In this document: positions 14,146 through 40,594 of the stretch, in pieces
How positions within the stretch are numbered: position 1 is the first letter of the stretch
How the letters are laid out: each line of letters starts with the position of its first letter
NCBI GenBank assembly: GCA_964613785.1
Contig: CAZTJT010000001.1
Span: 49,869 to 113,868, forward strand
Source of the DNA: an uncultured Rikenellaceae bacterium
GTDB lineage: Bacteria > Bacteroidota > Bacteroidia > Bacteroidales > VadinHA17
Direction: 5' to 3'
DNA: 64,000 bases
The notes under the pieces: model-generated
The model's input: the letters and a program-made list of their open reading frames with translations, nothing else
Told to the model about the DNA's origin: nothing
Databases searched by the model: none
Made by a program: the position numbers and the translations under genes

Positions 14146-15330
14146 TCAGATATATTCAAAGCTGACTTTTTTAAGCCATTTTTCTTCAAGCAGCCTCGCA
14201 ATCCGTTTTATGACGGTTCTTCGTATCTCAAGCTCAACCGGCAGTGTGGGATCCTGATGAGCAATGTTTATTCTCGTTCCGATGATAAAATGAATTTCAT
14301 CGCTTTCCATTACGAGTCTTACAATTTTATCGGCAGGCCCCTTGCCAAGTCTTACACTGTTATTGTACGATTTGAGTATTTCATTTACCTTTTGCAGTGT
14401 AAGGATTCCTTCAGTTACAAGGTCGATACCATCTATGAAGCTTTCCGGTGGTAACTCAGGGTCTTCAAAGATCAGTTCATCGATTATTGCCTTGTTAAGC
14501 TCCCTGGCAACAATATCGGCGGTTGTTCCGCCGCACAATATTACTTTTCCAGGATAACTTTTCACTTTTTCCGCAAGGTCGCGGTCTTTTTCCTTATCAT
14601 AAGGCGGGCCTGAACAGATGAGCAATTTCCTGGGTTCGCGGAAATAGATAGTGGCACAACTTATATCGTCTTTGGCCTTATAGCTGTCGTTCTTATGCGC
14701 CATGGAAACTATTTTTCCTGAAAGGATTTTTGCTGATATTGAAGCTTCTCCTTTCACCAGTGATGATGCATAGGCTGCAACCTCGTCACGTCCCCACCCG
14801 AACGGGAAAGACTCGCTTCCCATACCACTCTGGGCAACACCATCGGAACAGAAAATGATCCTGTCTTCTTTTGCAGGGACAAAAGAACAGGTCTTTAGCA
14901 TTTTACCGGAATTTTTACCCTTGTTCAGAACCACTTGTTTCCATGACGGATCGAAGATCTGAGATCCTCTGAGGATTATTGTTAAAGGATTATCATATTC
15001 CAGGATATTGGTTTTACCGCTGCTTTCTATATCAACAATGGTGAAGGTGGAATAGCTTATCTTTCTTTCGCTGCAGACCGGAAGAGTATTCATTATTATT
15101 TCAGCGATAGTGTCGACCTCCTTGTGCTCGATAGTGAAATTCATGGCCATGGTTGCGGTAAGAGTTGCAAGGATATTTGCCTTTACTCCGTGTCCCATGC
15201 CGTCAGAAAGTACGGCTATAACCCTGTCTTCTTCCTTGATGTATCTGTAAAGAAACACATCGCCGCAAATCCGTTCACCATCGTGATTTCTTTGCTGACT
15301 GTTCACCTCTATGTAAAAATCCTTATACAA
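14146..15330 (-). CDS. SpoIIE/PP2C-family protein phosphatase with an uncharacterised C-terminal domain
   Basis: The N-terminal ~230 aa carry the ICGDVF...VLSDGMGHG...FCSDGV...DDIS PP2C pattern. The C-terminal ~160 aa are unassigned. The gene sits 18 nt downstream of hydS. Confidence 0.75.
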   Translation of the reverse strand: MYKDFYIEVNSQQRNHDGERICGDVFLYRYIKEEDRVIAVLSDGMGHGVKANILATLTATMAMNFTIEHKEVDTIAEIIMNTLPVCSERKISYSTFTIVDIESSGKTNILEYDNPLTIILRGSQIFDPSWKQVVLNKGKNSGKMLKTCSFVPAKEDRIIFCSDGVAQSGMGSESFPFGWGRDEVAAYASSLVKGEASISAKILSGKIVSMAHKNDSYKAKDDISCATIYFREPRKLLICSGPPYDKEKDRDLAEKVKSYPGKVILCGGTTADIVARELNKAIIDELIFEDPELPPESFIDGIDLVTEGILTLQKVNEILKSYNNSVRLGKGPADKIVRLVMESDEIHFIIGTRINIAHQDPTLPVELEIRRTVIKRIARLLEEKWLKKVSFEYI

Positions 15331-15348
15331 GTTATTGATGCAGGAAAA

Positions 15349-17220
15349 TTATCTTGTTACCCTTCTTTTCTTATATGACTCAATGATGGAATTAAGCATC
15401 TTCTCTGTTTCGGAGGCGCCTTCTCCAAGCAGGAATCCTATTTTCTGAACCATTTCAAGGTTCTTTTCGATCACCTCGCTGACTCTGTTTGTGACTTCTT
15501 CTCCCTGAACTTCAGGCGAGTACAGATCACGGATTATTGCACCGCAGATTTTATTTTTTCTGATGGGAAAGATTGAAATATTAAGCATATTGTCCTCAAA
15601 CCTAATGTCCTTGCTTACAACGGGTTCATCTTCCTTAAGAACAAAAGTGAACATATTGTAAACGTTGAACGGCATAAGAGTTTTAAGATCTGCGCCCACC
15701 AGTCCGGGAATAATATCAGCAATGGCTTTTGCATCCTCACCTATGATATTGATAAAGCTAAGGTTTGAATGAAGTATTTTAAGGTTGTTGTCGACTATCA
15801 CTACCCCTGTGGGTAATTTTTCAAGCATATTATGCATCATGTCGGACGCACTCTGTGCCATTTCTTTTTCTCTCATGGCCAGTTCTTCCGACTCTTTCAG
15901 CGCCTTCTTGGTCTCAGCGAGCTTTCTGTTAGTCTGCCTTAGTGTTTCAATATACTCCTGCTTGTTTCGGAGATTAAATGTATGACACATTTCCGGAACG
16001 GCAAGTCCCTTTGCGACAGTTGCTGCGAAATCACGGCACGATTGGTAACCACAGGCTCCACAATTGAGTTCTTCGTCGGGATTTTCCTTTCCTATAATCT
16101 TGAGAACCTCATTTATAGCTTCGGCAGGCGGATCTGGTATCCGCTGATCGTTGGGATTGAACGATCTTGTAAAATCGAGTTTTGACCATCTTTCCATGTC
16201 TTTTGACCATTGGGCCTTATTGAGGGAGCCAACTCTTTTTTCGGCATAAAGTCTTACCAGCGCTCTTCGTCTGAACCTCTCCGTATGGCGCTCCATCCCG
16301 GGTCCAAGCATGCACCCATGGCAGAAGAAAAGATTAAAATGATGATGAATGGTGTCAATGTATTTACCAAAATCATTAAGCGCTTCAAAAACCTCCTCCT
16401 TGCCTGCAGCAGTTATCACATTGCTTGTAAAAAAGTCGCGTTTGATGCCCCCAGCCTGCACTATTCCCGCAGGCAACGGGTATAATGCACCCCAGTTGCC
16501 ATAGGGAGGATCAAATTCAGACATCTTTACAGTTCTCTCCTGTATCCCAGATTCCTCAAACATCTGCCTCAGCTCAATGAAAGTCAATACTCCGTCGACA
16601 AGCTTTCCCTCCCTGTAAAGAAACGTTTCATCCTTATTGTCGATGCATGGACCTATAAATACTGCAGCGACATTTTCACCATAAAGTTCCTTAACTACCA
16701 TGGCTGTTGCAATCATTGGTGAAACAATAGGTGCAAGATTGGGTACCAGCTCGGGATGATATTTTTCAATCAGCTTAACTATCGAGGGACAGTTTGCTGT
16801 TATATAATACTTACCTTCAGCCTTGTTGAAGAGACTGGCATATTCGGCTGCAATAAGATCGACCCCAAAGGAATCCTCGTGAACATAGTCAAATCCCAGA
16901 GCCCGGAGCATCCCCACAAACTTCCTGTAGTCGGTAATGTCAACGAATTCTGGTGCAATACTGGGGGCAACCAGTGCCACGGTCTTTCTTTCCGAAGAAA
17001 GCAGGCGCCTGACCTCCTCTTTTGAATCGCGGAACTCTATTGCTCTTGGAGAACACTCGATGAAGCAAAGGCCGCATCCTATGCACCTGTTTTCAATAAT
17101 TGTCGGGTGTTCTTTCTGTGCTCTCACTTCGATCGCATTGACCGGACAAACCCTTACACACGAATAGGTATTCCTGCATTTCTGCTCATTAATGAGAAAG
17201 ATTGGTTTTTTGTCGCTCAT
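15349..17220 (-). CDS. hydS: sensory [FeFe]-hydrogenase-like protein with C-terminal PAS domain (HydS, phosphatase-linked type)
   Basis: N-terminal ferredoxin-like Cys motifs. Degenerate H-cluster motifs: L1 ITANCPSI, L2 IGPCIDNKDE, L3 FFCHGCMLGPG. An extra CGACGYQSCRDF...C four-Cys motif, a coiled coil, then a PAS-like domain. Confidence 0.8.
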   Translation of the reverse strand: MSDKKPIFLINEQKCRNTYSCVRVCPVNAIEVRAQKEHPTIIENRCIGCGLCFIECSPRAIEFRDSKEEVRRLLSSERKTVALVAPSIAPEFVDITDYRKFVGMLRALGFDYVHEDSFGVDLIAAEYASLFNKAEGKYYITANCPSIVKLIEKYHPELVPNLAPIVSPMIATAMVVKELYGENVAAVFIGPCIDNKDETFLYREGKLVDGVLTFIELRQMFEESGIQERTVKMSEFDPPYGNWGALYPLPAGIVQAGGIKRDFFTSNVITAAGKEEVFEALNDFGKYIDTIHHHFNLFFCHGCMLGPGMERHTERFRRRALVRLYAEKRVGSLNKAQWSKDMERWSKLDFTRSFNPNDQRIPDPPAEAINEVLKIIGKENPDEELNCGACGYQSCRDFAATVAKGLAVPEMCHTFNLRNKQEYIETLRQTNRKLAETKKALKESEELAMREKEMAQSASDMMHNMLEKLPTGVVIVDNNLKILHSNLSFINIIGEDAKAIADIIPGLVGADLKTLMPFNVYNMFTFVLKEDEPVVSKDIRFEDNMLNISIFPIRKNKICGAIIRDLYSPEVQGEEVTNRVSEVIEKNLEMVQKIGFLLGEGASETEKMLNSIIESYKKRRVTR

Positions 17221-17238
17221 TTGGATTGAATGGCTTTG

Positions 17239-17493
17239 CTATTTTAAGTTTCCAAATTCATTTTCAAGTATTTCCTCAATTTTTGATAAAGTTACTCCCT
17301 GGATGATCCTGTCATTTATCTTAAGGTTCGGTCCGCTGTTGCATAAACCCATGCAACGGGATCCCTTAAAGATTATCAGATCATCAAGGTGGTTTTTTTT
17401 CAGATAATCCCTTATAAACATAACAACTTCCCTGTTCCCCCTGGAAAAGCAGGAACTGCCCAAACATATCTGCATCTCAATTCTTTGAGCCAT
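17239..17493 (-). CDS. thioredoxin-like [2Fe-2S] ferredoxin
   Basis: 84 aa with CLGSSC ... CMGLC (CX4C...CX3C). Confidence 0.7.
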   Translation of the reverse strand: MAQRIEMQICLGSSCFSRGNREVVMFIRDYLKKNHLDDLIIFKGSRCMGLCNSGPNLKINDRIIQGVTLSKIEEILENEFGNLK

Positions 17494-17518
17494 TTTTATT
17501 ACGTTTCCAATTCAATTC

Positions 17519-17526
17519 CAAAAGTA
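17519..17526 (-). promoter_or_regulatory. candidate Bacteroidota -7 box (TACTTTTG) for the ferredoxin-hydS-PP2C operon
   Basis: The plus strand reads caaaagta, which is TAnnTTTG on the minus strand. It lies 26-33 nt upstream of the ATG at 17493. Confidence 0.3.
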
Positions 17527-17702
17527 ATAATAATTCCTTTCTGGCAGGCAAAGGATAAATGGCCCCGCACTTCCAGTAATAATCCATAACCTTATCTTTA
17601 AGTTGATCTTATATATAATTAATATACAAATTGATGCAAAACAAGCAAAAACTCAGCCTTAGTTGAATCAAAGCATTTAAAAAATTCTCAAAGCAAATTT
17701 AA

Positions 17703-17737
17703 TTGTTATTTAATAAACATTGTTATTTTATTAACAA
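17703..17737. promoter_or_regulatory. tandem candidate Rex operators in the divergent hydrogenase promoter region
   Basis: 17720-17737 reads TTGTTAT-TTTA-TTAACAA, 1 mismatch from TTGTTAAnnnnTTAACAA. The abutting 17703-17720 site reads TTGTTAT-TTAA-TAAACAT and is weaker (3 mismatches). Confidence 0.5.
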
Positions 17738-17745
17738 TAAATTTT

Positions 17746-17753
17746 TATATTTG
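17746..17753 (+). promoter_or_regulatory. candidate -7 box (TATATTTG) for hydCBA
   Basis: Matches TAnnTTTG 25 nt upstream of the hydC ATG. The Rex site sits where the -33 element would be. Confidence 0.35.
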
Positions 17754-17777
17754 TAATTATGTTTTTAAAATAAAGAC

Positions 17778-18248
17778 ATGACTGAAGATATTGACAATAT
17801 AGTGAAAAAATATAAGCAGGGAAGGCGCGAAGAGCTTATTCCTCTTTTACAGGAGATTCAGCAAGATCTGGGATATCTTCCTGAGGAGGCTATAATCAGG
17901 GTCGGAAGTCATCTTGGATTGAGTACAACAAAAATTTACGGACTAGCAACATTTTATGACCAGTTCAGGTTCATACCTTCTGGAAAGGTCCATATAAGTA
18001 TATGTCACGGAACATCCTGTTTTATGAACGGCTCCCAGGCAATAATAGATAAGTTCTGTGAAGAGCTTAAGATGTCTCCCGGCCAGACCTCGAGGAATGG
18101 AAACTTCAGCTTTGACATAGTTTCGTGCATGGGAGGCTGCTACCATGGTCCTGTAATTACGGTGAACGGTGAATACAGGATACACGTCCGCCAGGAGCAG
18201 ATACCTGAACTTATACGGAAACTCAGATACATAATAGAAAATGACTAG
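17778..18248 (+). CDS. hydC: NuoE-like [2Fe-2S] subunit of a bifurcating-type [FeFe] hydrogenase
   Basis: 156 aa. CHGTSC ... CMGGC NuoE/HydC cysteine pattern. Its stop abuts the hydB start. Confidence 0.85.
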   Translation: MTEDIDNIVKKYKQGRREELIPLLQEIQQDLGYLPEEAIIRVGSHLGLSTTKIYGLATFYDQFRFIPSGKVHISICHGTSCFMNGSQAIIDKFCEELKMSPGQTSRNGNFSFDIVSCMGGCYHGPVITVNGEYRIHVRQEQIPELIRKLRYIIEND

Positions 18249-20183
18249 ATGGAAGATTTAAAGAAATTCCTGATAGAAAAAGTACTGTTGTTTGAATCCG
18301 ATACCCTTTCACCTGAAACGGAGAAGGTTTTGTCGCAGGTACGTCGTGAAAAAACCGATGTTCCGGTTATATATGTATCTTCAAATACAAGTAGTATAAT
18401 TGCAGGTTCCGAAAAAACCTTCAATGCTCTGAAATCATTTGTTGACGAGAATGAACCCAGGACATCCGTCATTAAGGTCGGCTGTATTGGTCCGGCAAAT
18501 TATGAACCGGTGTTATGTGTGCAGATGCCCGGCAAAAATAAACTGTTTTTCAGGAATATCACCGAGGAAAAAGTTGAACCTCTCATTAATGGGGTGTTTC
18601 ATAATGACATTAACGAGGAAGATCTTATCGGTCAGTCGGGATCTAGAGGCTTTGAGTTATGGCCCGGCATAGGTTTCCTTGAAGACATTCCGTTTTTTGC
18701 GAGGCAGAAAAGAATAGTTCTAGGAAACTGCGGCTGTTATGATCCTGAAAGCATTGAGGAATATATTGCACGAGGTGGTTACAGGACCTATCTTAAGACA
18801 ATCCGGCATTACACCTATGACGAGGTTTGCGAAATAATTGAAAGGAGCGGTCTGCGAGGCAGGAGCGGGGGTGGATATCTTACCGGACTTAAATGGAAGC
18901 AGGCTCTAAATACATCAAGTAATGCACGGTATCTAATATGTAATGCCAAGGAGAGTGATCCGGGTGCATTCAGCGACCGTATGATAATGGAAAGTGATCC
19001 TCACAGGCTGATTGAGGGAATGGCAATAGCTGCTTATGCAATAGGTTCATCAAATGCCATCCTTTATCTTAAAGCCGGGTCCGGGCATGCCCGTGTGAGA
19101 ATTCAGAAGGCAATTGAACAGACCAGAGAATACGGACTTCTTGGACATAATATTTATTCGAGCGGTTATAATCTCGATATTCAGGTCAGGATGGAACCCG
19201 GTGCTTTTGTTTGCGGGGAGGAAACTGCACTGATAAACAGCCTTGAAGGTAAGAGGGGAATGCCCCAGCTTAAACCGCCATATCCCACAACTTCGGGGCT
19301 GGCAGGCAAACCCACCGTAATAAACAATGTAGAGACACTTATGAATGTACCGCTGATAATGCAAAACGGTCCGGAATGGTTTCGTACACTAGGTACATTC
19401 AACAGCCCGGGCACCAAAGTATTTGCAGTTACCGGCCGCGGCAGGTTCTCAGGCGTTATAGAGGTTGAGATGGGGACCAGGATCAGAACCATCGTCGAGG
19501 ATATTGCTGACGGGATAAAGGAGGGAAAAGAATTTAAAGCAATCCAGATCGGAGGAGCTTCAGGCTCATTCATAACTTCTGACGACCTCGACACTCCGGT
19601 TGATTTTGATGCAATGAAAAGACAGGGCTTCGGAATGGGATCCGGCGGATTTGTAATAATTGATGAAACCTCATGTATCGTGGATCTCGTGCGCTATTTC
19701 ATGGAGTTCATACGTAAGGAGAGCTGTGGCAAGTGTATTCCATGCCGTGAAGGCACCGGACGTATGCTGGAAATACTTGAAAGTGTCATTAAGAAGCCGG
19801 CAAGCGAAGATTCAGGGACAACCCTTGAAAGATTCAAGGGAGTTATGCAGCTCGAAACGATTTCAGAGGTGATGAAAGACGCTTCACTCTGCGGACTTGG
19901 GCAGAACGCACCAAATCCGTTCGTAAGCGCTCTGAGAAACTTCAGGGAGGAGTTCGAGGAACATATTTTTGACAGGAAATGCCGTGCAAACGTTTGCAGA
20001 GGTCTGCGAACATTTATAATTAATGTTGAGAAATGTACCGGATGCACTGTCTGCGCAGGTAAATGCCCTGTAAATGCCATCTATGGAACCAGGCTCCAGC
20101 CTTATTTCATAGTCGAGGACAAATGCATAGGATGCGGTATATGCTACGATGTATGCAAATTCAGTGCAGTTATTGTGAGGTAG
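18249..20183 (+). CDS. hydB: NuoF-like NAD(H)/FMN-binding subunit of a bifurcating-type [FeFe] hydrogenase
   Basis: GRSGGGYLTGLKW, CNAKESDPGAF, CGEETALINSLEG and ESCGKCIPCREG motifs. Two C-terminal CxxCxxCxxxCP ferredoxin motifs. Confidence 0.85.
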   Translation: MEDLKKFLIEKVLLFESDTLSPETEKVLSQVRREKTDVPVIYVSSNTSSIIAGSEKTFNALKSFVDENEPRTSVIKVGCIGPANYEPVLCVQMPGKNKLFFRNITEEKVEPLINGVFHNDINEEDLIGQSGSRGFELWPGIGFLEDIPFFARQKRIVLGNCGCYDPESIEEYIARGGYRTYLKTIRHYTYDEVCEIIERSGLRGRSGGGYLTGLKWKQALNTSSNARYLICNAKESDPGAFSDRMIMESDPHRLIEGMAIAAYAIGSSNAILYLKAGSGHARVRIQKAIEQTREYGLLGHNIYSSGYNLDIQVRMEPGAFVCGEETALINSLEGKRGMPQLKPPYPTTSGLAGKPTVINNVETLMNVPLIMQNGPEWFRTLGTFNSPGTKVFAVTGRGRFSGVIEVEMGTRIRTIVEDIADGIKEGKEFKAIQIGGASGSFITSDDLDTPVDFDAMKRQGFGMGSGGFVIIDETSCIVDLVRYFMEFIRKESCGKCIPCREGTGRMLEILESVIKKPASEDSGTTLERFKGVMQLETISEVMKDASLCGLGQNAPNPFVSALRNFREEFEEHIFDRKCRANVCRGLRTFIINVEKCTGCTVCAGKCPVNAIYGTRLQPYFIVEDKCIGCGICYDVCKFSAVIVR

Positions 20184-20349
20184 GCAGAACGGTGACCGAA
20201 GACAGATGAATGATGATAGATGCCCGGACGACCCACCCTCTGTCCGACGCTTTCTTCGAATATAGTCCGCCACGACGGACTAAGTCCGAAACATAGTGTA
20301 AGAGGGACAGCACGATTTAATAAGAGTGACTAAAGCAATATGGTGAAAG

Positions 20350-22071
20350 ATGCAGTTCACAATTCAGGTTAATAACAAAAAGATAAAAGCCGAAAAGGGT
20401 GAAACCATACTATCGGCCCTGAACCGTAACGGTATAATCATTCCTACCCTTTGCAGGATGAAGGAGTTTACACCAACTGGCGCATGCAGGATGTGTGTTG
20501 TGGAAGTAGAGGGAAAAGAGCGGCTTGTTACAGCCTGTTCACAGCCTGTTGAGGAATGGATGAGAATAAAGACACATTCTCCGAGAGTGATCACTGCCCG
20601 TAAAACGATTGTAGAACTGCTGCTTTCAAACCATCCAGACGACTGTCTGTATTGCGACAGGAACCTGAATTGCGAACTGCAGAATCTGTCAGAAGAACTC
20701 AACATCAGGGAAAGGAGAATAAAGGGTAAGAAAATAAAGCCCCGACTCGATCAGTCGAGCCCTGCAATTGTCAGGGAACTCGCAAAATGTATACTGTGCG
20801 GCAGGTGTATCAGGGTATGTGAGGAATTAATTACCTGCACATCTGTCGATTTCATCAACAGGGGAAGACTGACTCATGTTGGGACTGCAATGGACAGGGA
20901 TTTTAATTTTTCAAGCTGTATTCAGTGCGGACAGTGTGTACTTGTATGCCCGACCGGTGCTCTTCATGAAAAGCACAATATAACTGAGGTCCAGGAATAT
21001 CTTAATAAGCACGATGTTGTTAAAGCCATTCAGTATTCTCCTTTTGTCCCTGCCGGAATAGCAGAAGAGCTCGGAATAAAATACAACCGGGATTTTGACA
21101 AGAACCTTAATGCCATACTCCGAAAAATAGGCTTTGATAAAGTTTATTCAACCGGTACAGGTGCAGATGTTTGCATATCGGAACTCGCCGATCATTTGTC
21201 ATTCAAACTGGAAAATAATGAAGAAAATCCTCTCTACATAACAGCCTGTCCGGCCTGGGTCAAGTATGCAGAACAATCGATGCCTGAAATTATTCCGGAT
21301 CTTTCGACAGTTAAATCACCTCAGCAGATTGCAGGGATCCTTATCAAGACAGTAGTAGCCGATCAGATGAAAGTAAAACCTGAAAAGATATTTTCAGTGT
21401 CGGTTACTCCGTGTATGGCGATGAAATATGAAGCTCGGCGCGACGGGATGATGAGAAAGGGTATCAGCGATGTTGATGCAGTCATGACGGTTAGAGAGCT
21501 GGCAAGGCTAATCAGGCTTAATGGAATAGATGTTTCCAACACCGACCGGGAGCCTGCTGATGAACCTCTAGCCGGAAGAAGTTCTTCAGCAGTTCTTTCG
21601 GAACTCTCAGGGGGTATGGCCGAAGGTGTCGTCAGGCTGCTCACATACCGAAAAACAGGTAAAGATGCTGACAGGCAGCTACTGAAAAGACTAAGAGGTT
21701 CGGGCTCTTTCAGGGATTGTACCGTAAAAGCCGGCGACATTGAAATAAGAATCGCTGTAGTTGACGGACTTACAGGACTTGAGAAGCTTAAATCCTCAGT
21801 TTCTTCCGGCGCAAAATACCATCTGGTTGAAGTAATGACCTGCCCTGGAGGCTGTATTCACGGAGGAGGCCTTCCACAGGTTGCATCAAGAGAAGACCTT
21901 AAGAACAGAGCCAGGCTGATATATCAGGCTGATGAAACAGAAGCAATCTCACTGCCTGAGAAATCGCCTTCAGTCATTAATCTTTATGAGAAACTTATTA
22001 AGAACAACAAAGAGATCAGCGACAAAAAAATATTTCATACCCATTTTGAAAAAAAGAGCGTTCTTTTGTGA
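20350..22071 (+). CDS. hydA: [FeFe] hydrogenase large subunit, M3 architecture (2Fe2S, His-ligated 4Fe4S, 2x 4Fe4S, H-domain) with atypical L1 motif
   Basis: NuoG-like N-terminus including HPDDCLYCDRNLNC. L1 is ITACPAW where the canonical motif is TSCCPxW. L2 is TPCMAMKYE and L3 is EVMTCPGGCIHGGG. 573 aa, collinear with clostridial CpI. Confidence 0.8.
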   Translation: MQFTIQVNNKKIKAEKGETILSALNRNGIIIPTLCRMKEFTPTGACRMCVVEVEGKERLVTACSQPVEEWMRIKTHSPRVITARKTIVELLLSNHPDDCLYCDRNLNCELQNLSEELNIRERRIKGKKIKPRLDQSSPAIVRELAKCILCGRCIRVCEELITCTSVDFINRGRLTHVGTAMDRDFNFSSCIQCGQCVLVCPTGALHEKHNITEVQEYLNKHDVVKAIQYSPFVPAGIAEELGIKYNRDFDKNLNAILRKIGFDKVYSTGTGADVCISELADHLSFKLENNEENPLYITACPAWVKYAEQSMPEIIPDLSTVKSPQQIAGILIKTVVADQMKVKPEKIFSVSVTPCMAMKYEARRDGMMRKGISDVDAVMTVRELARLIRLNGIDVSNTDREPADEPLAGRSSSAVLSELSGGMAEGVVRLLTYRKTGKDADRQLLKRLRGSGSFRDCTVKAGDIEIRIAVVDGLTGLEKLKSSVSSGAKYHLVEVMTCPGGCIHGGGLPQVASREDLKNRARLIYQADETEAISLPEKSPSVINLYEKLIKNNKEISDKKIFHTHFEKKSVLL

Positions 22072-22128
22072 AAACTGGAAATTTAAAAAGAGATAAGGAA
22101 AAAATGGATTGTGATCAATAAACCATTA

Positions 22129-22136
22129 TACATTTG
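22129..22136 (+). promoter_or_regulatory. candidate -7 box (TACATTTG) for the hydS-HK operon
   Basis: TAnnTTTG match 36 nt upstream of the ATG at 22173. Confidence 0.3.
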
Positions 22137-22172
22137 TGCCGTTTAATCATTGACTAATTAAACTTTTAAGAA

Positions 22173-24131
22173 ATGCTGGTATATACGATAAAAGAGCTTT
22201 GCCGGACATGTTACACCTGTGTGAGGGAGTGTCCTGCCAAAGCCATTCGTATAGTCGGGGGTCAGGCTGAAGTCATTGACGAAAGGTGCATAGCATGCGG
22301 GAACTGCACTAAAGTATGCAGCCAGGGAGCGAAAGTGTTCCTTAATACCACCGACAGGGTATTAAGGCTTCTGGAAAGTAGTAAAAAAGTTGCAGCTATT
22401 GTAGCTCCAAGTTTCCCTGCAGAGTTTATTGGTATCGACCATAAGGTACTGGTAGGAATGATACGGGCTGTTGGGTTTGAGATGGTGCTTGAAGTGTCCT
22501 TTGGCGCTGACCTGGTTGCTGACAGATACAAGCAGCTTGTTATGCAAAACACAGGCTACTATATTTCCTCCGATTGCCCCTCCATCGTTAATTATATCAA
22601 GCATTATCATCCGAACCTGGTTGATAATCTTGCACCTGTTGTCTCACCCATGGTTGCCATGAGCAGAGTGGTCCGTTCAGAGTATGGCAATGATACGAGG
22701 ATAGTGTTTATCGGACCTTGCGTGGCAAAAAAAGCCGAGAGTGCAGAGATTGATGAAGCGATTACATTTACGGAGCTCAGGGAGCTGCTTGATCTACTCA
22801 GGATAGGAACAGAATCAATAGCACCATCTGATTTTGATCCCCCTTACGGAGGACGCGGAGCCATTTTCCCGGTAACACGCGGCTTACTACAGACAGCACA
22901 TATTAATGATGACGCAATAACCGGAAATATCATAGCAGCAGAGGGAAGAACCGACTTCCAGGGTGCACTCAAGGAATATGAAGCCGGACTTATTTGTAAT
23001 CAGCATATGGAACTTTTATGCTGCGAAGGCTGTATAATGGGCCCCGGATTGTCAAAAAACGGTAAACAATACAACAGGAGGGCGCTTGTAAGTAATTATG
23101 CCAACCAGAAGATGATTGCGATGGATCATAAGTCATGGCAACAGTACTTTGACCTCTACTCTTCACTCGACCTTTCGGTGAGGCACAAGCCTGAAGAAAG
23201 CATCATTACAGTTCCGGATGAAGCTGAAATAGAGTCGGTGCTTGTCTCAATGGGCAAACTGACCAAAAAGGATCATCTTGACTGTGGCGCATGCGGCTAT
23301 GAAAGTTGCATTGAACATGCAATAGCAATAAAAAACGGGCTTGCAGAGGTGGAGATGTGTCTGCCTTATACTATTGAAAAGTTGCATAATTCTGTAAGAG
23401 AACTGGCTCTTTCGAATGAGAAGCTCACATCAATGAAACAGGCTCTTAAGCAGTCTGAAAAACTTGCACACATGGGTCAGCTTTCTGCAGGAATCGCGCA
23501 TGAACTCAATAATCCCCTGGGAGTTGTAATAATGTACAGTAATATTCTTCTGGAAGAAAGTGCTCCGGGTGATCCTGTTAGAGATGATCTGAAGCTTATC
23601 GTTGAACAGGCCGGAAGATGCAAAAAGATCGTAGGCGGACTACTTAATTTTGCCCGTAAAAACCAGGTTAACCATCAGCTGATCAATATCAGGGAACTTG
23701 TCGATCACAGCCTTGAGAGCCTTATTGTTCCGGAAAATGTGGGAATAGAAATCTCTGACAAGACAACCAACCCATCTGCCATGCTTGATCCCGAGCAGAT
23801 GACACAGGTGCTTACCAATCTCATTAAAAATGCATTTGAGGCTATGCCTGACGGAGGATCAATAAAGCTTATTCTCGAAGATACCCTGAGTGATGTCTCA
23901 TTTACAGTAAAAGATTCAGGTACAGGTATCAGAGAAGAAGACAAGGCAAAGATCTTTGAGCCATTTTTTACCACAAAGGGAATCGGACGGGGAACCGGAC
24001 TGGGCCTTGCAACTGCTTACGGGATAGTGAAAATGCATAAAGGACAGATCACAGTCGATTCAAATATTGACCCTGCGAAGGGACCTACCGGAACCAGCTT
24101 CAGGATAGTGCTGCCCAGAGGAAAAGAATAA
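22173..24131 (+). CDS. sensory [FeFe]-hydrogenase-like domain fused to a histidine kinase
   Basis: N-terminal [12 protein letters not shown] and [11 protein letters not shown] motifs. L1 ISSDCPSI, L2 [11 protein letters not shown]3 [24 protein letters not shown] motif and a coiled coil. H-box [12 protein letters not shown], followed by HATPase N and G boxes (DSGTGI, GTGLGL). Confidence 0.8.
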
Positions 24132-24180
24132 AAAGTTAACGGCAAATGGAAAAATTATTATGTGATGGGTAAATTTTTTG

Positions 24181-24591
24181 ATGAAATTCATGATGATGAA
24201 AAAGAGTGATTTTACTATTCTGGTGGCCGATGATGACCCTGACTATCTTTTTCAGACCATTTCAAACCTTGAAAAAGCAGGGTATAAGACTATTGCTGCT
24301 GAAAGCCAGGCTGAAGCTGAAACAATAATATCGCGTTTCAAACCCAGCCTCGCAATATTCGATCTTATGATGGAGAATGATGACAGCGGATTTATTCTAT
24401 GTTACAAGATAAAGAGAAAGTACCCGGATGTGCCGGTCATACTTGCAACTGCTGTAGCCCATGAGACAGGAATATCCTTCAGCCTCGATTCAGAAAGTGA
24501 CAGAATGTGGATAAGGGCTGACAGGTATCTTGAAAAAGGTATACGTTCAGATCAGCTTGATCAGGAAATTATGCGTCTTTTAAAACTATGA
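24181..24591 (+). CDS. stand-alone response-regulator receiver protein
   Basis: ILVADDDPD ... LAIFDLMM ... receiver pattern with no output domain. The exact start is ambiguous (TTG 24178, or ATG 24181/24190-24196). Confidence 0.75.
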   Translation: MKFMMMKKSDFTILVADDDPDYLFQTISNLEKAGYKTIAAESQAEAETIISRFKPSLAIFDLMMENDDSGFILCYKIKRKYPDVPVILATAVAHETGISFSLDSESDRMWIRADRYLEKGIRSDQLDQEIMRLLKL

Positions 24592-24592
24592 T

Positions 24593-25726
24593 ATGGCTGT
24601 ATTAAAAGTTCTCGTCATTGACGACGAACCGGGTATCCGTTCAGGAGTTACCAGGATACTGAGCAACTTTCATGTGAATTATCCATTTATGGATGAGGAT
24701 TATACATTTGAAGTTAAAGAAGCAGCAACCGGGGAGGATGGTATCAGCATGATTGAAACAGAAAATCCTGATATACTGCTTCTTGACAATAAACTACCTG
24801 GCATGCAGGGTATTGAGGTTCTGGAGTATATAAGGAACAAGAAATATGATACCGTGGTAGCGATGATCACTTCATACGCTTCCCTTGATGTTGCTCTTAA
24901 AGCTCATAAGTTTGGTGCAACTGATTTTATCCCCAAGCCGTTTACCCCTCAGGAACTGAAATCAAGCATTGAGAATATAACCAAACAGCAGTATCTCAAA
25001 AGAATTACCCACCGGATGAATGAGGAGGGTAAAAAGATCAGATATCAGTTCCTTTCTGTTCTGTCGCATGAGCTTAAAGCACCGCTTAATGCTATTGAAG
25101 GATATCTGAGGATGATGCAGGAAAAACAGATGGGTGAATATATTCGCGACTATGATACCGCCATTGAACGGTCACTCCAAAGAATTCAGGGTATGAGAAA
25201 TCTAATAATGGATCTGCTCGATTTTACGAAAATAAGGCTTGAAAGGAAAGATGAAAAGATCGAACCTGTAAATCTGTCTGAAATTGCTTCAGGTGCAATC
25301 ATAACAGTTCAACCTTATGCAATCCAGATGGAAGTAACTGTAAAGCTTGATGTAAAATCTGATGCGGTGATAATGGCTGATCCGACCGACATGGAGATCA
25401 TTTTCAATAACTTGGTTTCCAACTCTGTTAAATACAATAAGCCCGGCGGAAAAGCTGAAATCACCATTGATGGCGATGAAAACAACGTTATAGTTTATTT
25501 CTCCGATACAGGCATAGGAATTACTGAGTCGGACAAGGAGAATCTGTTCACAGAGTTCGTAAGAATCAAGAATGAAAGGACTAAAAATATTTCAGGAAGC
25601 GGTCTGGGGCTTTCAATTGTAAAGAAGGTTATTGAACTTTATAATGGAACCATATCAGTTGAAAGTACACCCGATATAGGCACTACCTTTATTGTCAGGC
25701 TTCCTAAGAAACCCGAAAAAAAATAA
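24593..25726 (+). CDS. hybrid receiver-histidine kinase
   Basis: N-terminal receiver (VLVIDDEPG ... ILLLDNKLPGM ... KPF). HisKA LSHELKAPLN. HATPase motifs NSVKYN, DTGIGI and GSGLGLSIV. Confidence 0.8.
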   Translation: MAVLKVLVIDDEPGIRSGVTRILSNFHVNYPFMDEDYTFEVKEAATGEDGISMIETENPDILLLDNKLPGMQGIEVLEYIRNKKYDTVVAMITSYASLDVALKAHKFGATDFIPKPFTPQELKSSIENITKQQYLKRITHRMNEEGKKIRYQFLSVLSHELKAPLNAIEGYLRMMQEKQMGEYIRDYDTAIERSLQRIQGMRNLIMDLLDFTKIRLERKDEKIEPVNLSEIASGAIITVQPYAIQMEVTVKLDVKSDAVIMADPTDMEIIFNNLVSNSVKYNKPGGKAEITIDGDENNVIVYFSDTGIGITESDKENLFTEFVRIKNERTKNISGSGLGLSIVKKVIELYNGTISVESTPDIGTTFIVRLPKKPEKK

Positions 25727-25731
25727 TCAGT

Positions 25732-26358
25732 ATGGCAACATTACCAGGAAAAACAGTTGAAAGGCTTAGTGAATACAGAAGAACCCTTCTGGAGTGTCTT
25801 AAAGAAAAAAAGAATTTTATTTTTTCACATGACCTTGCTGCCCGGCTTCATATCACAGCTGTTCAGGTAAGACGTGATCTTATGCTTATCGGTTATTCAA
25901 GTGTTCAGAGAAAGGGATATGATGTCAAAATCCTTATCGATACAATAAGCAGCATTATAGATTCGGAGGAGGGCATGAATGTTGCAATCATAGGGATTGG
26001 CAACCTGGGAAGGGCACTTGCTGCATATTTTAAAGGAAAGAGGTCGAAGCTTAACCTGGTTGCATCATTTGACAATGACCCTCAAAAGATCAACAAAGTA
26101 ATTTCAGGAGTTAAATGTTACCCATATCAGGATCTTGATAGAGTCGTAAAAGAGTTAAATATTGAGGTGGCGATACTTACTGTACCCGCCGATTATGCCA
26201 GAGAAATTGCTGAGGAAACAGTCAGATATGGAATAAAAGGTATCCTGAATTTTACGACTGTACCTCTAAATGTGCCTTCAGGTGTATATCTTGAAGAATA
26301 TGACATGATCACATCTATTGAGAAAGTGGCATATTTCGTAAAGGAAAACAAACTTTAA
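25732..26358 (+). CDS. rex: redox-sensing transcriptional repressor Rex
   Basis: N-terminal winged helix (TVERLSEYRRTL...VQVRRDL), then Rossmann IIGIGNLGRALA and C-terminal ILNFT. 208 aa. Confidence 0.85.
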   Translation: MATLPGKTVERLSEYRRTLLECLKEKKNFIFSHDLAARLHITAVQVRRDLMLIGYSSVQRKGYDVKILIDTISSIIDSEEGMNVAIIGIGNLGRALAAYFKGKRSKLNLVASFDNDPQKINKVISGVKCYPYQDLDRVVKELNIEVAILTVPADYAREIAEETVRYGIKGILNFTTVPLNVPSGVYLEEYDMITSIEKVAYFVKENKL

Positions 26359-27693: not shown

Positions 27694-27711
27694 GTGTTAA
27701 ATAATTAACAA
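27694..27711. promoter_or_regulatory. candidate Rex operator upstream of the TM1266-like regulator gene
   Basis: GTGTTAA-ATAA-TTAACAA, 1 mismatch from TTGTTAAnnnnTTAACAA. It lies 16 nt upstream of the ATG at 27727. Confidence 0.5.
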
Positions 27712-27726: not shown

Positions 27727-28254
27727 ATGATTAAAATTCTTGGCATCAAAATAATCGACAGGATTAAAGAAGCCGGACTGACTCAGGAGGTCCTTTCAAT
27801 GCACGCCGGTGCGATAACAACAAGACTGGGATTTCACGAGTTATCATCGGAATTATGCAACCGGGAGGCTTACATAATTCTTCATCTTTCCGCCGAGTCT
27901 CAGGAGATATCAAGACTTCAGACTGATCTGAGAAATATCGGAGGTATTTACATCTCGGAAATGACGTTCGATCACAATAGTCAGTTCAGAAATTTCTCCG
28001 CGGAGGAGGGAGCACTGAGAATTATCGGTATACTGGTAGAGCACAAGAAAAAGGATTCCATCCTGATGATCCAGAAAACACTGACTGCATACGGATGCGT
28101 GATACGTACACGTCTGGGAGTAAATGAAGAATTCCTTGGCAGTCCTGCAGGCCTTATCCTGCTTGAGCTAATGGGTGATGAGATCCAGATGGACCTGCTT
28201 GAAAGAGACCTGCAGAAGCTGCCAGGAGTTATCTTCAGAAAGATGGTACTGTAG
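27727..28254 (+). CDS. tandem-duplicated TM1266-like (ACT/NikR-C-like) putative iron-only hydrogenase system regulator
   Basis: Two ~80-aa halves share the pattern hhhGIhh....h...hL..a...I..RLG......a.hIL.L......h..L...L..h.GV....M. The second half runs IIGILVEHKKK...VIRTRLGV...LILLELMGD...LQKLPGVIFRKMVL. Confidence 0.55.
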   Translation: MIKILGIKIIDRIKEAGLTQEVLSMHAGAITTRLGFHELSSELCNREAYIILHLSAESQEISRLQTDLRNIGGIYISEMTFDHNSQFRNFSAEEGALRIIGILVEHKKKDSILMIQKTLTAYGCVIRTRLGVNEEFLGSPAGLILLELMGDEIQMDLLERDLQKLPGVIFRKMVL

Positions 28255-28263
28255 TTTCAGCCT

Positions 28264-29730
28264 TTAAAGACTGTCGCCGAAATCATCTCTGAATTTTGAC
28301 ACCAGTGTTTGTGGCCAGTCAGATACCGGAATGAGCCTGCCTGTAAAGAACCTGAGTATGGGTGGTTCCTCAATGAATTTCAATCCGCCTACAATATGCC
28401 TGTTCTGATAAAGCCAGTTAAGCCTGTCGATCGCATATTCAATCTGCGACAAAGTGAATACCCGCCTTGGAACAGCAAGCCTCATAAGCTCAAGATCAGC
28501 GAGTATGTCAGCCCCGTTTTCGTCCCTGTTGTTGCTCATTGTACCACGCTCCATGCCTCTGATTCCCGAAATGATATAATAGGCTGCCACCAGCGATCCT
28601 GCAGGATATTCAGTCTGAGGTACATGGCTCAGGAACTGCATTGCATCAACATGACAGCCGAGGGCACCACCTGGCATTATTACCGGAATGCCAAGCTTGT
28701 CGAGTTCCTGGACCATATAATTTATAAATATTGGTGAATGACTCACCACTGAATCTTCGATGGTCTCCTTCAAGCCTTCTGCCATTGATTCAATTTCACG
28801 GATCGGAATTCCTCCATAGGTTAGAAAGCCTTCATAAACAGGAACAAGGTATTTCATCTGGTTATATATTTCCGGTTCATTTGTACAGATAGCTCCTCCC
28901 CTCGACGAACTTACCTTTCTTCCCGAAAAATAAACGATATCGCACAATGAGCTCATCTCAAGGAGTATTGACTCAAGAGAGCTTTTACTGTAACCATTCT
29001 CCCTGGTCTTTATGAAATAGGCATTCTCTCCCACGAGGCTGGCATCAAGAACTATTTTCAGACCATGTCTGTCGGCAATCCTCCTTACTTCCTTGAGGTT
29101 TGCCATCGAAAAAGGCTGTCCGCCTATTAAATTTGTGGATGCTTCCATCCTTATAAAAGGAATTCTATCTGTACCGTAAAGAGTTATTACTTCCTCAAGC
29201 CTTCCTGTATCAATATTTCCTTTGAAAGGATTGGTGCTTTTGATCTTCATCGCCTCGGGGGTATATAGTTCAAGCACAGTGCCCCCGTTAAGTTGAATGT
29301 GCGCAAGGGTTGTAGTGAAATGGTAATTCATCGGTACTACCGAACCTTCCTTTACATACGATTTGCTGATTATATTTTCGGCTGCACGCCCCTGATGCAC
29401 GGGAAGAACATATTTCTTGCCGAATACCTTTAACACACTTTTCCTGAATTTGTCAAAACTCTGAGACCCGGCATAAGCATCGTCAGCCACAAACATCTTT
29501 GACATTTGCGCATCGCTCATCGCATTTGTCCCACTGTCTGTCAGCATGTCAAGAAAAATGTCGGATGTTGATAAGAGGAATGAGTTGTAACCGGCATCAG
29601 TAATCGCCTCAAGACGGCGTTCCACCGGCACCAGATTCAACGCCTGCACGATCCTTACCTTATGCATCTCAATGGGAAGCTGTTTCCCGCTGAAAAATTT
29701 CACTGCATTGTTTGCCACTGTTTGCTCCAT
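28264..29730 (-). CDS. beta-eliminating lyase, tyrosine phenol-lyase-like
   Basis: 488 aa, collinear with TPL/tryptophanase (LTDSGTNAMSD, DAYAGS, SGRK PLP-lysine region, AVPRRV). It has HFTTT where TPL has YFTTT and TnaA has FFDTT. It has LRFFT where TnaA has LRHFT. Confidence 0.7.
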   Translation of the reverse strand: MEQTVANNAVKFFSGKQLPIEMHKVRIVQALNLVPVERRLEAITDAGYNSFLLSTSDIFLDMLTDSGTNAMSDAQMSKMFVADDAYAGSQSFDKFRKSVLKVFGKKYVLPVHQGRAAENIISKSYVKEGSVVPMNYHFTTTLAHIQLNGGTVLELYTPEAMKIKSTNPFKGNIDTGRLEEVITLYGTDRIPFIRMEASTNLIGGQPFSMANLKEVRRIADRHGLKIVLDASLVGENAYFIKTRENGYSKSSLESILLEMSSLCDIVYFSGRKVSSSRGGAICTNEPEIYNQMKYLVPVYEGFLTYGGIPIREIESMAEGLKETIEDSVVSHSPIFINYMVQELDKLGIPVIMPGGALGCHVDAMQFLSHVPQTEYPAGSLVAAYYIISGIRGMERGTMSNNRDENGADILADLELMRLAVPRRVFTLSQIEYAIDRLNWLYQNRHIVGGLKFIEEPPILRFFTGRLIPVSDWPQTLVSKFRDDFGDSL

Positions 29731-35327: not shown

Positions 35328-35406
35328 TATAGATACGAATCAGATGAACAATGCAAAATAATATGTATGTTCGGGGCTTCAAATAATAACTTAAAAATTA
35401 AACAAT

Positions 35407-35832
35407 ATGGTAATACCTCAACTTTCAGTTTTCCTTGAGAACAAATCAGGCAGGCTCACCGAGGTATTGGAAGTGCTTGGCAAAGAACGCATCAGAATAA
35501 CAGCATTGAGTGTTGCTGATACCTCTGAGTTCGGGATCCTGAGAATGATTGTCTCCGATCCGGAAAAAGCCAAAGGACTTCTAAAGGATCATAATTTTAC
35601 CGTTAACCTCTCTGATGTCATATCGGTTATGGCACCTGATGAGGCCAGGTATTATGCTAAAATCCTCAGGATTCTGTCAGACCAGGAAATAAGTATTGAA
35701 TACACATATGCTTTTTCGCGTGGTTCCAAATCAATAATTATCCTTCGGTGTAACAACAATGAACAGGCTATCAAGGCACTGAAGGATCACGAAATGGAAC
35801 TTATTAACGCCAGCGACCTTTACAAGATCTGA
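35407..35832 (+). CDS. ACT-domain protein
   Basis: 141 aa made of two ACT-like halves. Its stop lies 1 nt before the CoA ligase start. Confidence 0.75.
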
Positions 35833-35833
35833 T

Positions 35834-37135
35834 ATGGAAATATGGAACAGGCATTTTGAATGCATGGATCGTGACGCTCTGAGGAAAGTGCAGAGTGAAC
35901 GTCTTATTGAAACAGTTGAAAGGATATATTTTAACGTGCCCTATTACAGGCACAGGATGCAGGAACAGGGAATTGGACCTGAGAGTATAAGGTCGATTGA
36001 TGATATTACCATACTCCCATTTACCACTAAAAAGGATCTGAGGGATAATTATCCTTATGGATTGTTTGCAGTTCCGTTGAGTGAAATAGTACGTATCCAC
36101 GCATCATCAGGTACCACCGGAAAACCCACTGTCGTTGGATATACAAGGAATGATATAGCCACATGGTCGGAGGTGATGGCTAGAACTTTGACCTGTGCAG
36201 GTGCCGACAGGAACGATTTTATTCAGATCGCATACGGTTACGGACTTTTTACCGGCGGCCTGGGGCTTCATTATGGAGGAGAGAAAATAGGAGCCTCGGT
36301 GATCCCTATTTCAGGTGGTAATACAATGAGGCAAATACAGCTGATGCACGATTTTGGAAGTACGGTTCTTGCCTGCACTCCTTCATATGCATTATTCCTT
36401 GCAGAGGCTATAAATGAAAGCGGAATCAACAGGGAAGAGTTAAGGTTAAGGGTAGGTGTGTTTGGAGCTGAACCATGGACCGAGAACATGCGGAGAGAAA
36501 TCGAGAGCAAGCTGAAAATAAAAGCTATTGATATTTACGGACTTAGTGAGATCATAGGCCCAGGAGTGGCGAGTGAATGTCTGTTCCAGGAGGGTCTTCA
36601 TATCAATGAAGATCATTTCTACCCCGAGATTATCGACCCGGAAACAATGCAGGTACTTCCGGAGGGAAGTACAGGCGAGCTGGTATTTACAACTATTACA
36701 AAGCATGGATTGCCTCTTATCAGATACAGGACAAGGGATCTTACGCAGCTGAATTACAGCCGGTGCAAATGCGGGCGAACCCTTGTTAGGATGTCAAAAT
36801 GCCTAGGCAGGAGCGATGATATGTTGATCATACGGGGAGTTAACCTGTTCCCTTCGCAGGTTGAAAGTATACTTCTGGAAATGGGTGGGATAAAACCCCA
36901 TTATCAGTTGATTGTAGACAGGATTAATAATCTTGACACCCTCGAACTTAGAGTGGAAGTTGACGAAGCATTTTTCCTTGACAGAATAAGCCAGCTGGAA
37001 GGACTAAGGTCAAAAATCCAGAATAATCTCGAGAGTTCATTAGGTTTGGGTATAAAGGTGACTCTTGTGGAACCGAAGGTTATTGAGAGAAGTGAAGGCA
37101 AATCAAAAAGGGTTATTGACAAAAGAAAATTTTAA
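35834..37135 (+). CDS. phenylacetate--CoA ligase family protein
   Basis: PaaK-like N-terminus and the AMP-binding motif [11 protein letters not shown]. 433 aa. Confidence 0.8.
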
Positions 37136-37144
37136 GATATTTAA

Positions 37145-38467: not shown

Positions 38468-38480
38468 AAACCAGCTTATT

Positions 38481-38705: not shown

Positions 38706-38712
38706 TTGGTTT

Positions 38713-39783: not shown

Positions 39784-39786
39784 ATA

Positions 39787-40578: not shown

Positions 40579-40594
40579 TCCTAAACCATCAGCT

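Follow-up and report, generated by a model that had tools for sequence, protein, structure and literature searches.

Sensory [FeFe]-hydrogenases, or HydS proteins, fall into group C of the HydDB classification, whose subdivisions include putative C1 (kinase-linked) and C3 (phosphatase-linked) classes and whose sensory role is still labelled putative (PMC5037454). A C-terminal Cx2Cx4Cx16C cluster motif marks these proteins (PMC8163306). A residue other than Cys at position 299 and a small residue at 353 are typical of them (PMC10055695), and those that have been characterised show low turnover (PMC10055695, PMC8163306). In Thermoanaerobacterium saccharolyticum, hfsB and hfsCD have regulatory phenotypes (PMC5707799), and a sensor acting together with a PP2C phosphatase has been proposed in Ruminococcus albus (PMC6776011). 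Hydrogenase genes can also be placed under Rex, which in Caldicellulosiruptor acts as a repressor of FeFe hydrogenase genes, of hydG and of its own gene (PMC6391272). Here we describe a locus that brings these elements together, found in a stretch of 64,000 nucleotides (the window) of contig CAZTJT010000001.1 from an uncultured Rikenellaceae bacterium. A hydrogenase operon, hydCBA, is flanked by two HydS paralogues, one fused to a histidine kinase (HydS-kinase) and one with a divergent PAS tail that is linked to a PP2C phosphatase (HydS-PAS), and is accompanied by Rex. To our knowledge the C1 group has never been biochemically characterised, and the signal output of putative sensory [FeFe]-hydrogenases is unsolved: H-clusters have been studied in two such proteins only, and we know of no output pathway.

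The best explanation of the locus, to which we give a probability of about 0.6, is a conserved Bacteroidales locus for H2 metabolism, with two transcription units diverging from a common intergenic region. A first-pass annotation of this DNA had arranged ten open reading frames (ORFs) in two divergent arms around hydCBA. That gene order was recovered, and both the coordinates and the domains found by Pfam and NCBIfam scans of the window ORFs agree with it. Domains and motifs likewise bear out its claim that two H-domain sensors, one kinase-fused and one PP2C-linked, surround hydCBA together with Rex. Its island had the right genes but ended too early, since the locus also takes in a ribF-like gene, hydG (reduced here to a remnant) and a gene of the TM1266 family. 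The parts are all of known, mostly putative, kinds; what is new is their fixed combination and an atypical HydA.

Evidence for a conserved locus is provided by related genomes. When one genome per species was scanned, 354 genomes had a relative of HydS-kinase, and the best 80 of these (at least 77% identical) were used for locus mapping. Upstream genes were counted in 61 loci with at least 8.5 kb upstream, and downstream genes in 62 loci with at least 7.5 kb downstream. Both hydC and hydA are found in 60/61 loci, and 57/61 have both arms, the PP2C/HydS-PAS/ferredoxin arm being complete. The receiver and Rex occur in 62/62 loci, the receiver-kinase and the RibF-like gene in 61/62 each, hydG in 37/62 and the TM1266-like gene in 36/62. 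The homologues are labelled Bacteroidales, Bacteroidota or Rikenellaceae. The dual-sensor order is a lineage-wide feature, not peculiar to one genome, and the core of the island is hydCBA / hydS-kinase / rec / rec-kinase / rex / ribF. The first-pass annotation had considered that this order might turn out to be a common and already characterised arrangement. It is common (57/61 loci), but no description of it was found: a literature search returned no paper on this arrangement in Bacteroidales, nor one joining HydS, Rex, histidine kinase, phosphatase and hydrogenase.

The predicted control by Rex is conserved in the same loci. Rex here has winged-helix and Rossmann NAD(H) domains, and a conserved operator lies at the promoter of its predicted target. 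One or two Rex boxes (17-bp offset) are present within 300 bp of the hydC start in 69/69 loci, mostly 53-88 bp upstream of the ATG and in a few cases at 165-266 bp. Over 1.48 Mb of loci there are 71 Rex boxes with at most one mismatch, every one inside the island; 60 lie upstream of hydC, 10 upstream of the receiver gene and 1 upstream of the TM1266-like gene. With up to two mismatches allowed, 103/144 boxes lie upstream of hydC, in 65/66 loci. Across 63 distinct hydC upstream regions, the sole conserved blocks are two Rex boxes and the -7 box TATATTTG, most columns of which are at least 90% conserved. This box and TACTTTTG, which precedes the divergent unit, are taken here to be -7 boxes by comparison with the Bacteroidetes consensus TAnnTTTG. 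No Shine-Dalgarno sequence precedes hydC; this absence, together with the TAnnTTTG-type boxes, fits Bacteroidota. A scan for sigma-70 promoters and terminators gave counts equal to those of shuffled sequences and carries no information for a Bacteroidetes genome.

Taken together, the boxes are strong comparative evidence that Rex would repress hydC by occupying the upstream element of its promoter and, if rex is co-transcribed with hydC, would also regulate itself. The first-pass annotation had left open how signals at this locus reach transcription. For Rex a route is now predicted, through the conserved operators at the hydC promoter; for the two H2 branches, no output regulator is found among the window ORFs of at least 150 aa.

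In 18/79 related loci there is a further Rex box, placed between hydS-kinase and the receiver gene. In ten of them (L014, L030, L036, L049, L051, L055, L056, L057, L062 and L074) it has at most one mismatch, about 85-95 bp upstream of the receiver. Such a receiver-proximal box suggests an internal Rex-controlled promoter for rec/rec-kinase/rex. The window has no Rex box between these two genes, where the gap is 46 bp. A Rex-like box at 27694-27711, before the TM1266-like gene, was not counted as an operator, a box being present there in 2/36 loci.

The ferredoxin/HydS-PAS/PP2C unit has a conserved -7 box of its own, and the upstream alignment of 61 loci contains no conserved operator for it and no Rex box nearby. 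The island may be no more than two independent modules that happen to be neighbours, with hydCBA regulated by Rex and the kinase branch and other targets regulated by ferredoxin/HydS-PAS/PP2C, for example fermentation enzymes, as hfs affects adhE. Consistent with such independence, hfs deletions in T. saccharolyticum alter ethanol/lactate flux and adhE expression (PMC5707799), and the PP2C arm is absent in L003, L011, L012, L015 and L017, where the rest is intact. Partial loci are also found. The distant relative L084 has ferredoxin/HydS/PP2C (394 aa) and L086 has PP2C/HydS, both without adjacent hydABC, though both contigs are short; L085 has HydS-kinase / receiver / receiver / receiver-kinase. 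Because the PP2C arm is absent in some loci and each arm occurs alone elsewhere, the island is a junction of two recurrent, separable module types. Nevertheless, divergent adjacency is kept in 57/61 species-level genomes despite synonymous saturation, which points to selection on the linkage of the arms and leaves full independence a doubtful, though serious, proposal.

Another multi-sensor hydrogenase locus, more distant and of different composition, is present in L087 (1-11980). Its hydC is followed by a fusion of HydB with a GltD-like NAD(P)H domain and by hydA; then come HydS-kinase, receiver and receiver-kinase, with another HydS-kinase last.

Domain searches found the H-cluster domains that the first-pass annotation had assigned to the two HydS proteins: both have Fer4 and Fe_hyd_lg_C matches and four Cys ligands. 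These ligands and the C-terminal Cx2Cx4Cx16C motif are kept in HydS-PAS (57 orthologues) and HydS-kinase (80 orthologues). In the two sensors of the window, the C-terminal motifs read CGACGYQSC-x16-C and CGACGYESC-x16-C, with PF04060 matches. HydS-PAS consists of 2x[4Fe-4S], the H-domain, the C-terminal [4Fe-4S], a coiled coil, a divergent PAS and a conserved C-terminal helix, and has the motifs TANCP, GPCIDNKDE, FFCHGC and Cx2Cx4Cx16C. In HydS-kinase, SSDCP (with Asp at 299), Cx2Cx4Cx16C and the H-box AHELNNP are conserved in 79-80/80 orthologues.

Residue positions are given in CpI numbering, from alignments to CpI and bifurcating HydA structures together with orthologue motif counts. Position 299 is Asn in HydS-PAS and Asp in HydS-kinase, position 353 is Gly in both, and position 497 is Phe and Leu, respectively. 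Lys358 is kept in HydS-kinase and lost in HydS-PAS, which keeps a Lys at 359 and whose orthologues have Ala, Asn or Ser at 358. The group A proton pathway is absent from both sensors, which are about 35% identical to each other. Both show the sequence features of group C (M2f-type HydS), namely the N-terminal 2x[4Fe-4S], the H-domain, the loss of Cys299 and a small residue at 353. HydS-kinase has the histidine kinase association of HydDB subgroup C1 through direct fusion, and HydS-PAS has the phosphatase linkage of subgroup C3 through its neighbouring gene. Judged by gene linkage, the two modules would correspond to putative C1 and C3.

A profile-free search with the sensor H-domain returned 4805 representatives at E < 1e-3. 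From the closest of them (50%-identity representatives), 138 were aligned with the two sensors of the window, giving 140 sequences, and the C-terminal cluster motif is found in 139/140 of them. A fused kinase is present in 44, one of which is the window's own HydS-kinase (43/139 others); other members have PAS tails of about 170 residues, methyl-accepting chemotaxis protein (MCP) tails or GGDEF outputs. These labels were assigned by regular expression, and some MCP tails were missed. In a neighbour-joining tree, HydS-kinase lies among the kinase-fused representatives, and HydS-PAS lies in a separate clade with tails of 205-214 residues, distinct from classical HydS with its tail of about 170 residues.

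The C-terminal PAS of HydS-PAS, also claimed by the first-pass annotation, is below Pfam cutoffs itself (sub-threshold PAS matches only, E ~0.01) and is recognised by homology to classical HydS tails. Both of the classical tails scanned (n=2) are above the Pfam PAS cutoffs. Alignment of the tail-clade profile with classical HydS tails by hhalign gives 99.4% probability and an E value of 5e-22 over 151 columns, and includes a common C-terminal helix motif, Q-I-x-x-LGE.

These features also bear on whether HydS-kinase and HydS-PAS are sensors at all, or rather electron-transfer or catalytic partners of HydABC that report, for example, ferredoxin or Fe-S redox state and not H2. Asp299 of HydS-kinase is compatible with a role as partner, Asp being the only activity-preserving substitution in prototypical enzymes (PMC10055695), and so is the putative status of group C sensing (PMC5037454); but each of the two is tied by fusion or coupling to a signalling output, neither has the group A proton pathway, both have the Gly353 typical of sensory enzymes, and the low turnover of characterised HydS proteins points the same way. 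We regard a role as mere partners as improbable.

Returning to the conserved locus with two putative H2 sensors, its signalling residues are also strongly kept. The phospho-acceptor motif AIFDLMM of the stand-alone receiver is found in 75/76 orthologues, and in the receiver-kinase both the H-box SHELKAP and the Asp motif (L/V/I)LLDNKLP are found in 70/71. Overall, at least 98% of orthologues keep the phosphorelay residues (AHELNNP, SHELKAP, FDLMM, LLDNKLP). The ORF of the receiver starts at TTG. Since orthologues are 131 aa, the likely start is the ATG at 24196.

Domain scans agree with the first-pass annotation that, within the island, Rex is the only protein with a DNA-binding output and the PP2C has no STAS or anti-sigma partner. 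The intergenic gaps of the island are too short to hide a gene for a DNA-binding, STAS or anti-sigma protein. Inside each predicted transcription unit they measure 0-166 bp, with terminator signals no stronger than background, in favour of the two-unit reading.

The PP2C keeps its metal-binding motif, SDGMGHG, in 55/57 orthologues, and its 120 best homologues are 85-96% identical. Its gene starts 18 bp downstream of hydS-PAS. The C-terminal domain of about 170 residues (residues 226-394, window 14146-14655) is conserved as strongly as the catalytic domain. It has no sequence match in Pfam, NCBIfam or PDB, the best being a SIS-domain protein at E 1.8, which is not significant. An AlphaFold2 model of the PP2C, built with 15 near-identical homologues, has a mean predicted local distance difference test score of 42.7 and is unusable. 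There is no gene for an HfsD-like HATPase Ser/Thr kinase in the island or beside the PP2C, where the next gene is a NUDIX gene on the opposite strand; this left flank (NUDIX, metallophosphoesterase, GH9) consists of unrelated genes.

Elsewhere in the window, positions 56374-59265 encode a DUF6272-SiaC fusion (306 aa) followed by a RyR-domain SpoIIE/PP2C phosphatase (653 aa), a pair of the STAS-like partner-switch type. The pair was not assigned to the island, from which it is separated by 30 kb and whose PP2C it does not need, having one itself.

The first-pass annotation had described hydCBA as a catalytic operon of the bifurcating type. Subunit and domain order uphold this, but with a HydA that lacks C299, E279, E282, K358 and M353 and a HydB without its N-terminal 2Fe-2S Cys, 'catalytic' is too confident a label. 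Compared with CpI, TmHydA and Tk HydA, the HydA has the replacements C299A, E279L, E282H, R286K, M353T, K358M and S232F, and retains the four Cys ligands. Its L1 motif is ITACPAW (canonical TSCCP), its L2 motif is TPCMAMKYE (canonical MPCxxKxxE), and SPFVP stands in place of APSVR. It thus lacks the canonical L1/L2/L3 motifs and the proton pathway of group A3. The variant motifs are present in 120/120 best homologues (76-92% identical), which indicates that the variant state has been selected in a large clade and is not decay.

HydB aligns nearly full-length to the bifurcating HydB/BfuB structures 7p5h_B, 8a6t_B and 7q4v_B (E 1e-153 to 1e-167). The FMN/NADH site and C-terminal 2x[4Fe-4S] of a group A3 HydB are present, as is HydC. 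The N-terminal [2Fe-2S] ligands of group A3 are not. In the N-terminal thioredoxin-like domain (window 18249-18700) most cluster Cys are lost, template Cys positions reading S and A, and 48/65 HydB orthologues have just 2 Cys within the first 140 residues.

Substitution of K358 affects the activity of [FeFe]-hydrogenases much as that of C299 does. In prototypical enzymes, replacement of C299 by residues other than Asp abolishes or severely impairs activity (PMC10055695). The A3 catalytic subunit of Bacteroides thetaiotaomicron gives about 0.26 nmol H2 per min per OD, versus 7.0 for the group B enzyme, and combines this very low activity with minimal transcription (PMC12578642).

Of the maturase gene hydG, the window retains ~57 codons from the start and ~15 from the end; the rest was removed by an internal deletion of some 1.2-1.4 kb. 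A tblastn search of the window with HydG of L001 (474 aa) matches residues 1-57 only, the C-terminal codons being read from the sequence. Synteny with L001 is lost at window 27493 / L001 17268 and regained at window 27692 / L001 18659. In close relatives (L001 and L003, for example), ribF is followed by an intact HydG of 460-474 aa. The nearest relative, L004, has neither hydG nor the TM1266-like gene at the locus, and hydG is absent from this position in 25/62 loci.

Between the window and L004, the ratio of nonsynonymous to synonymous substitution rates (dN/dS) is 0.02-0.07 for all eleven genes tested, with dS about 0.6-1.0. Together with the near-invariant catalytic and signalling motifs, this argues that the locus is functional, which would imply that maturases are encoded elsewhere. 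A decaying or non-functional locus, with hydG deleted, HydA without essential residues and no active H-cluster in any of the three H-domain proteins, would match the 86-codon remnant, the C299A and K358M replacements and, if the B. thetaiotaomicron A3 subunit shares the variant motifs, its low activity (PMC12578642), but is very improbable and was rejected as the main reading on these dN/dS values, given also that every island ORF is intact, that none of the 120 best HydA homologues departs from the variant motifs, that L004 itself has no hydG at the site and that hydG could sit elsewhere in the genome.

Table 1. Features of the island and its immediate downstream neighbours (window coordinates)
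Feature	Position	Strand	Evidence
SpoIIE/PP2C Ser/Thr phosphatase, 394 aa	14146..15330	-	PF07228 E 8.6e-10, residues 34-225 only
HydS-PAS sensory [FeFe]-hydrogenase paralogue (putative), 623 aa	15349..17220	-	Fe_hyd_lg_C E 1.3e-39, 2x[4Fe-4S], PF04060
Thioredoxin-like [2Fe-2S] ferredoxin, 84 aa, Cys 10/15/47/51	17239..17493	-	PF01257 E 2.1e-10
Candidate Bacteroidetes-type -7 box TACTTTTG of ferredoxin/HydS-PAS/PP2C operon	17519..17526	-	Conserved block, 61-locus upstream alignment
Tandem Rex-operator-like palindromes	17703..17737	.	17703-17720, 3 mismatches; 17720-17737 TTGTTATTTTATTAACAA, 1 mismatch
Candidate -7 box TATATTTG of hydC operon	17746..17753	+	8 bp 3' of Rex boxes; conserved columns
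hydC, NuoE-like 2Fe-2S subunit, 156 aa	17778..18248	+	PF01257 E 1.7e-43
hydB, NuoF-like FMN/NADH subunit, C-terminal 2x[4Fe-4S], 644 aa	18249..20183	+	Complex1_51K E 2.7e-41
hydA, M3-type [FeFe]-hydrogenase subunit, 573 aa	20350..22071	+	Fe_hyd_lg_C E 1.6e-66
HydS-kinase sensor (putative), 652 aa	22173..24131	+	Fe_hyd_lg_C E 4.2e-41, FeS, HisKA E 9e-13, HATPase_c E 2e-23
Stand-alone receiver, ORF 137 aa	24178..24591	+	PF00072 E 6.9e-14, receiver only
Receiver-HisKA-HATPase_c hybrid, 377 aa	24593..25726	+	Pfam domains
Rex, NADH/NAD+-sensing repressor, 208 aa	25732..26358	+	NF003995 203.5 bits vs cutoff 126; PF06971 + PF02629
RibF-like FAD synthetase, 307 aa	26374..27297	+	PF06574 E 4.9e-44; NCBIfam RibF models match below cutoffs
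hydG remnant, 86 codons	27360..27620	+	tblastn + synteny break vs L001
Tandem TM1266/CPF_0552-family protein ('iron-only hydrogenase system putative regulator'), 175 aa	27727..28254	+	NF052672 124 bits vs cutoff 85, two stretches

A conserved two-unit locus for H2 metabolism could work in the following way, in which Rex binding and its NADH response, the H2 dependence of kinase and phosphatase, the phosphotransfer partners, co-transcription and all outputs are predicted. Unit 1 would run hydC-hydB-hydA-hydS(kinase)-rec-rec/kinase-rex-ribF, to which many relatives add hydG and the TM1266-like gene, and the upstream (-33) region of its promoter would be covered by one or two Rex operators. At low NADH/NAD+, Rex would repress unit 1, including its own gene. 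NADH would free Rex from the DNA, so that HydABC is made together with its H2 sensor, and HydABC would dispose of NADH and reduced ferredoxin as H2.

HydS-kinase would then bind H2 at its H-cluster. The redox change may pass through the C-terminal [4Fe-4S] and the coiled coil to the DHp domain and alter autophosphorylation. There would be two phosphoryl acceptors, the lone receiver and the receiver domain of the second kinase, and this second kinase might in turn act on an unlinked response regulator or other target. Unit 2 (ferredoxin, HydS-PAS, PP2C) would be hfsABC-like: H2 sensing, relayed via the PAS tail, would control the Ser/Thr phosphatase on a phosphoprotein.

Several points weigh against this explanation. 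The coupling of the two arms is in doubt, the PP2C arm being dispensable in some relatives and having its own promoter and no Rex box. In the 64-kb window (ORFs of at least 150 aa), neither H2 branch has a response regulator with an output domain. All three H-domains would need genes outside the window for their maturation, because hydG is a remnant here and is absent at its position in 25/62 loci. The operon product, lacking C299 and K358 in HydA, may not be a fast H2-evolving enzyme. Finally, every relative found is an uncultured metagenome-assembled genome. With no cultured host and no identified output in the window, the value of the locus is limited.

Within these limits, the locus offers a compact and strongly conserved candidate partner set: Rex with its predicted operators, the two putative sensors (one kinase-fused, one PP2C-linked), two receivers and a second kinase. 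Reconstitution in vitro is possible. The widespread Bacteroidales A3-type HydA clade has lost residues held essential for fast catalysis (Cys299, Lys358). This loss may be relevant to the low activity and low expression described for the Bacteroides A3 enzyme, as well as to the assignment of H2 production to hydrogenase classes in peat, sediment, digester and gut metagenomes.

A more far-reaching idea, speculative and on balance unlikely, is a three-H-cluster device. In it, a HydABC that is slow, perhaps has a strong bias and is linked to NADH by Rex would be joined to two H2 sensors with two thresholds or time scales. The idea is based on the lack of a canonical proton relay in all three H-domain proteins, HydA included, and on differences between the sensors. 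Their active-site shells differ, with Asp299 and Lys358 in HydS-kinase versus Asn299 and no Lys358 in HydS-PAS. Their outputs, under the same low odds, would differ too, a His-Asp phosphorelay in one and Ser/Thr dephosphorylation in the other. If true, the locus would set a precedent twice over, as no A3-type hydrogenase clade would have been seen before to work in the absence of Cys299 and Lys358, and no dual-sensor H2 circuit would have been defined earlier.

Some neighbouring genes may be connected with hydrogen metabolism. The RibF-like gene starts 15 bp after rex and is a neighbour in 61/62 related loci; because HydB is a flavoprotein, cofactor supply may be co-regulated with it. At window 27727-29730, the TM1266/CPF_0552-family gene is convergent with a gene of the tryptophanase/tyrosine phenol-lyase family (488 aa), which adjoins the island in several relatives too. 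A link between this lyase and the hydrogenase is conceivable, since HydG uses tyrosine. Further downstream, window 33270-41152 encodes an acetyl-CoA synthetase (ADP-forming)-like protein, a phenylacetate-CoA ligase-like protein, an aminotransferase and a three-subunit 2-oxoacid:ferredoxin oxidoreductase. This fermentation gene set is a plausible source of reduced ferredoxin for HydABC.

Among known systems, the hydCBA part resembles bifurcating HydABC of group A3 (T. maritima, T. kivui, A. woodii; 7p5h, 8a6t, 7q4v) in its three subunits, domain order and M3 HydA, with E values of 1e-102 to 1e-167. It differs in the HydA replacements listed above at positions 299, 279, 282, 353, 358 and 232 and in the lost N-terminal 2Fe-2S Cys of HydB; bifurcation would be its putative activity. 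The kinase branch recalls RedCDEF of Myxococcus, a similar multi-kinase network with a receiver-kinase hybrid. It also recalls Leptospira LvrA/LvrB (PDB 8vc9). Common to these systems are a sensor kinase, output-less receivers, a receiver-HisKA-HATPase protein and the lack of a nearby DNA-binding regulator. The likeness is an architectural analogy only; LvrB is among the PDB/NCBIfam matches, at 101 bits versus a cutoff of 500.

In the Rex regulon of Firmicutes and Thermotogae, exemplified by Caldicellulosiruptor bescii, palindromic 18-bp operators precede FeFe hydrogenase genes and rex, and hydG and a small regulator are linked to the system (PMC6391272); the regulation predicted here is of this type. 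In contrast to C. bescii, rex lies here inside a Bacteroidales hydrogenase operon, and the predicted operators are tandem (17-bp offset) beside a Bacteroidetes -7 box.

The PP2C arm is closest to hfsABCD of T. saccharolyticum and to the C3 systems with HydS and PP2C of Ruminococcus albus and Thermotoga maritima. All share an operon of ferredoxin, HydS-PAS and SpoIIE/PP2C beside a hydrogenase operon, and a HydS layout with N-terminal 2x[4Fe-4S], H-domain, Cx2Cx4Cx16C and a homologous PAS tail. Of the four hfsABCD genes, however, only the first three have counterparts here, the gene for the HfsD-like HATPase kinase being missing. The tail of HydS-PAS is about 40 residues longer than that of classical HydS, with a coiled coil before a PAS that does not reach the Pfam cutoffs. 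HydS-PAS also differs from the hfs/C3 proteins in having Asn299 and Ala, Asn or Ser at 358 and in forming a separate clade, and its host belongs to the Bacteroidales, whereas theirs are Firmicutes or Thermotogae. The kinase-linked sensor, lastly, resembles HydDB C1 in combining an H-domain sensor with a histidine kinase, here by direct fusion; what distinguishes it from C1 is the fixed receiver and receiver-kinase pair, and Rex, that accompany it.

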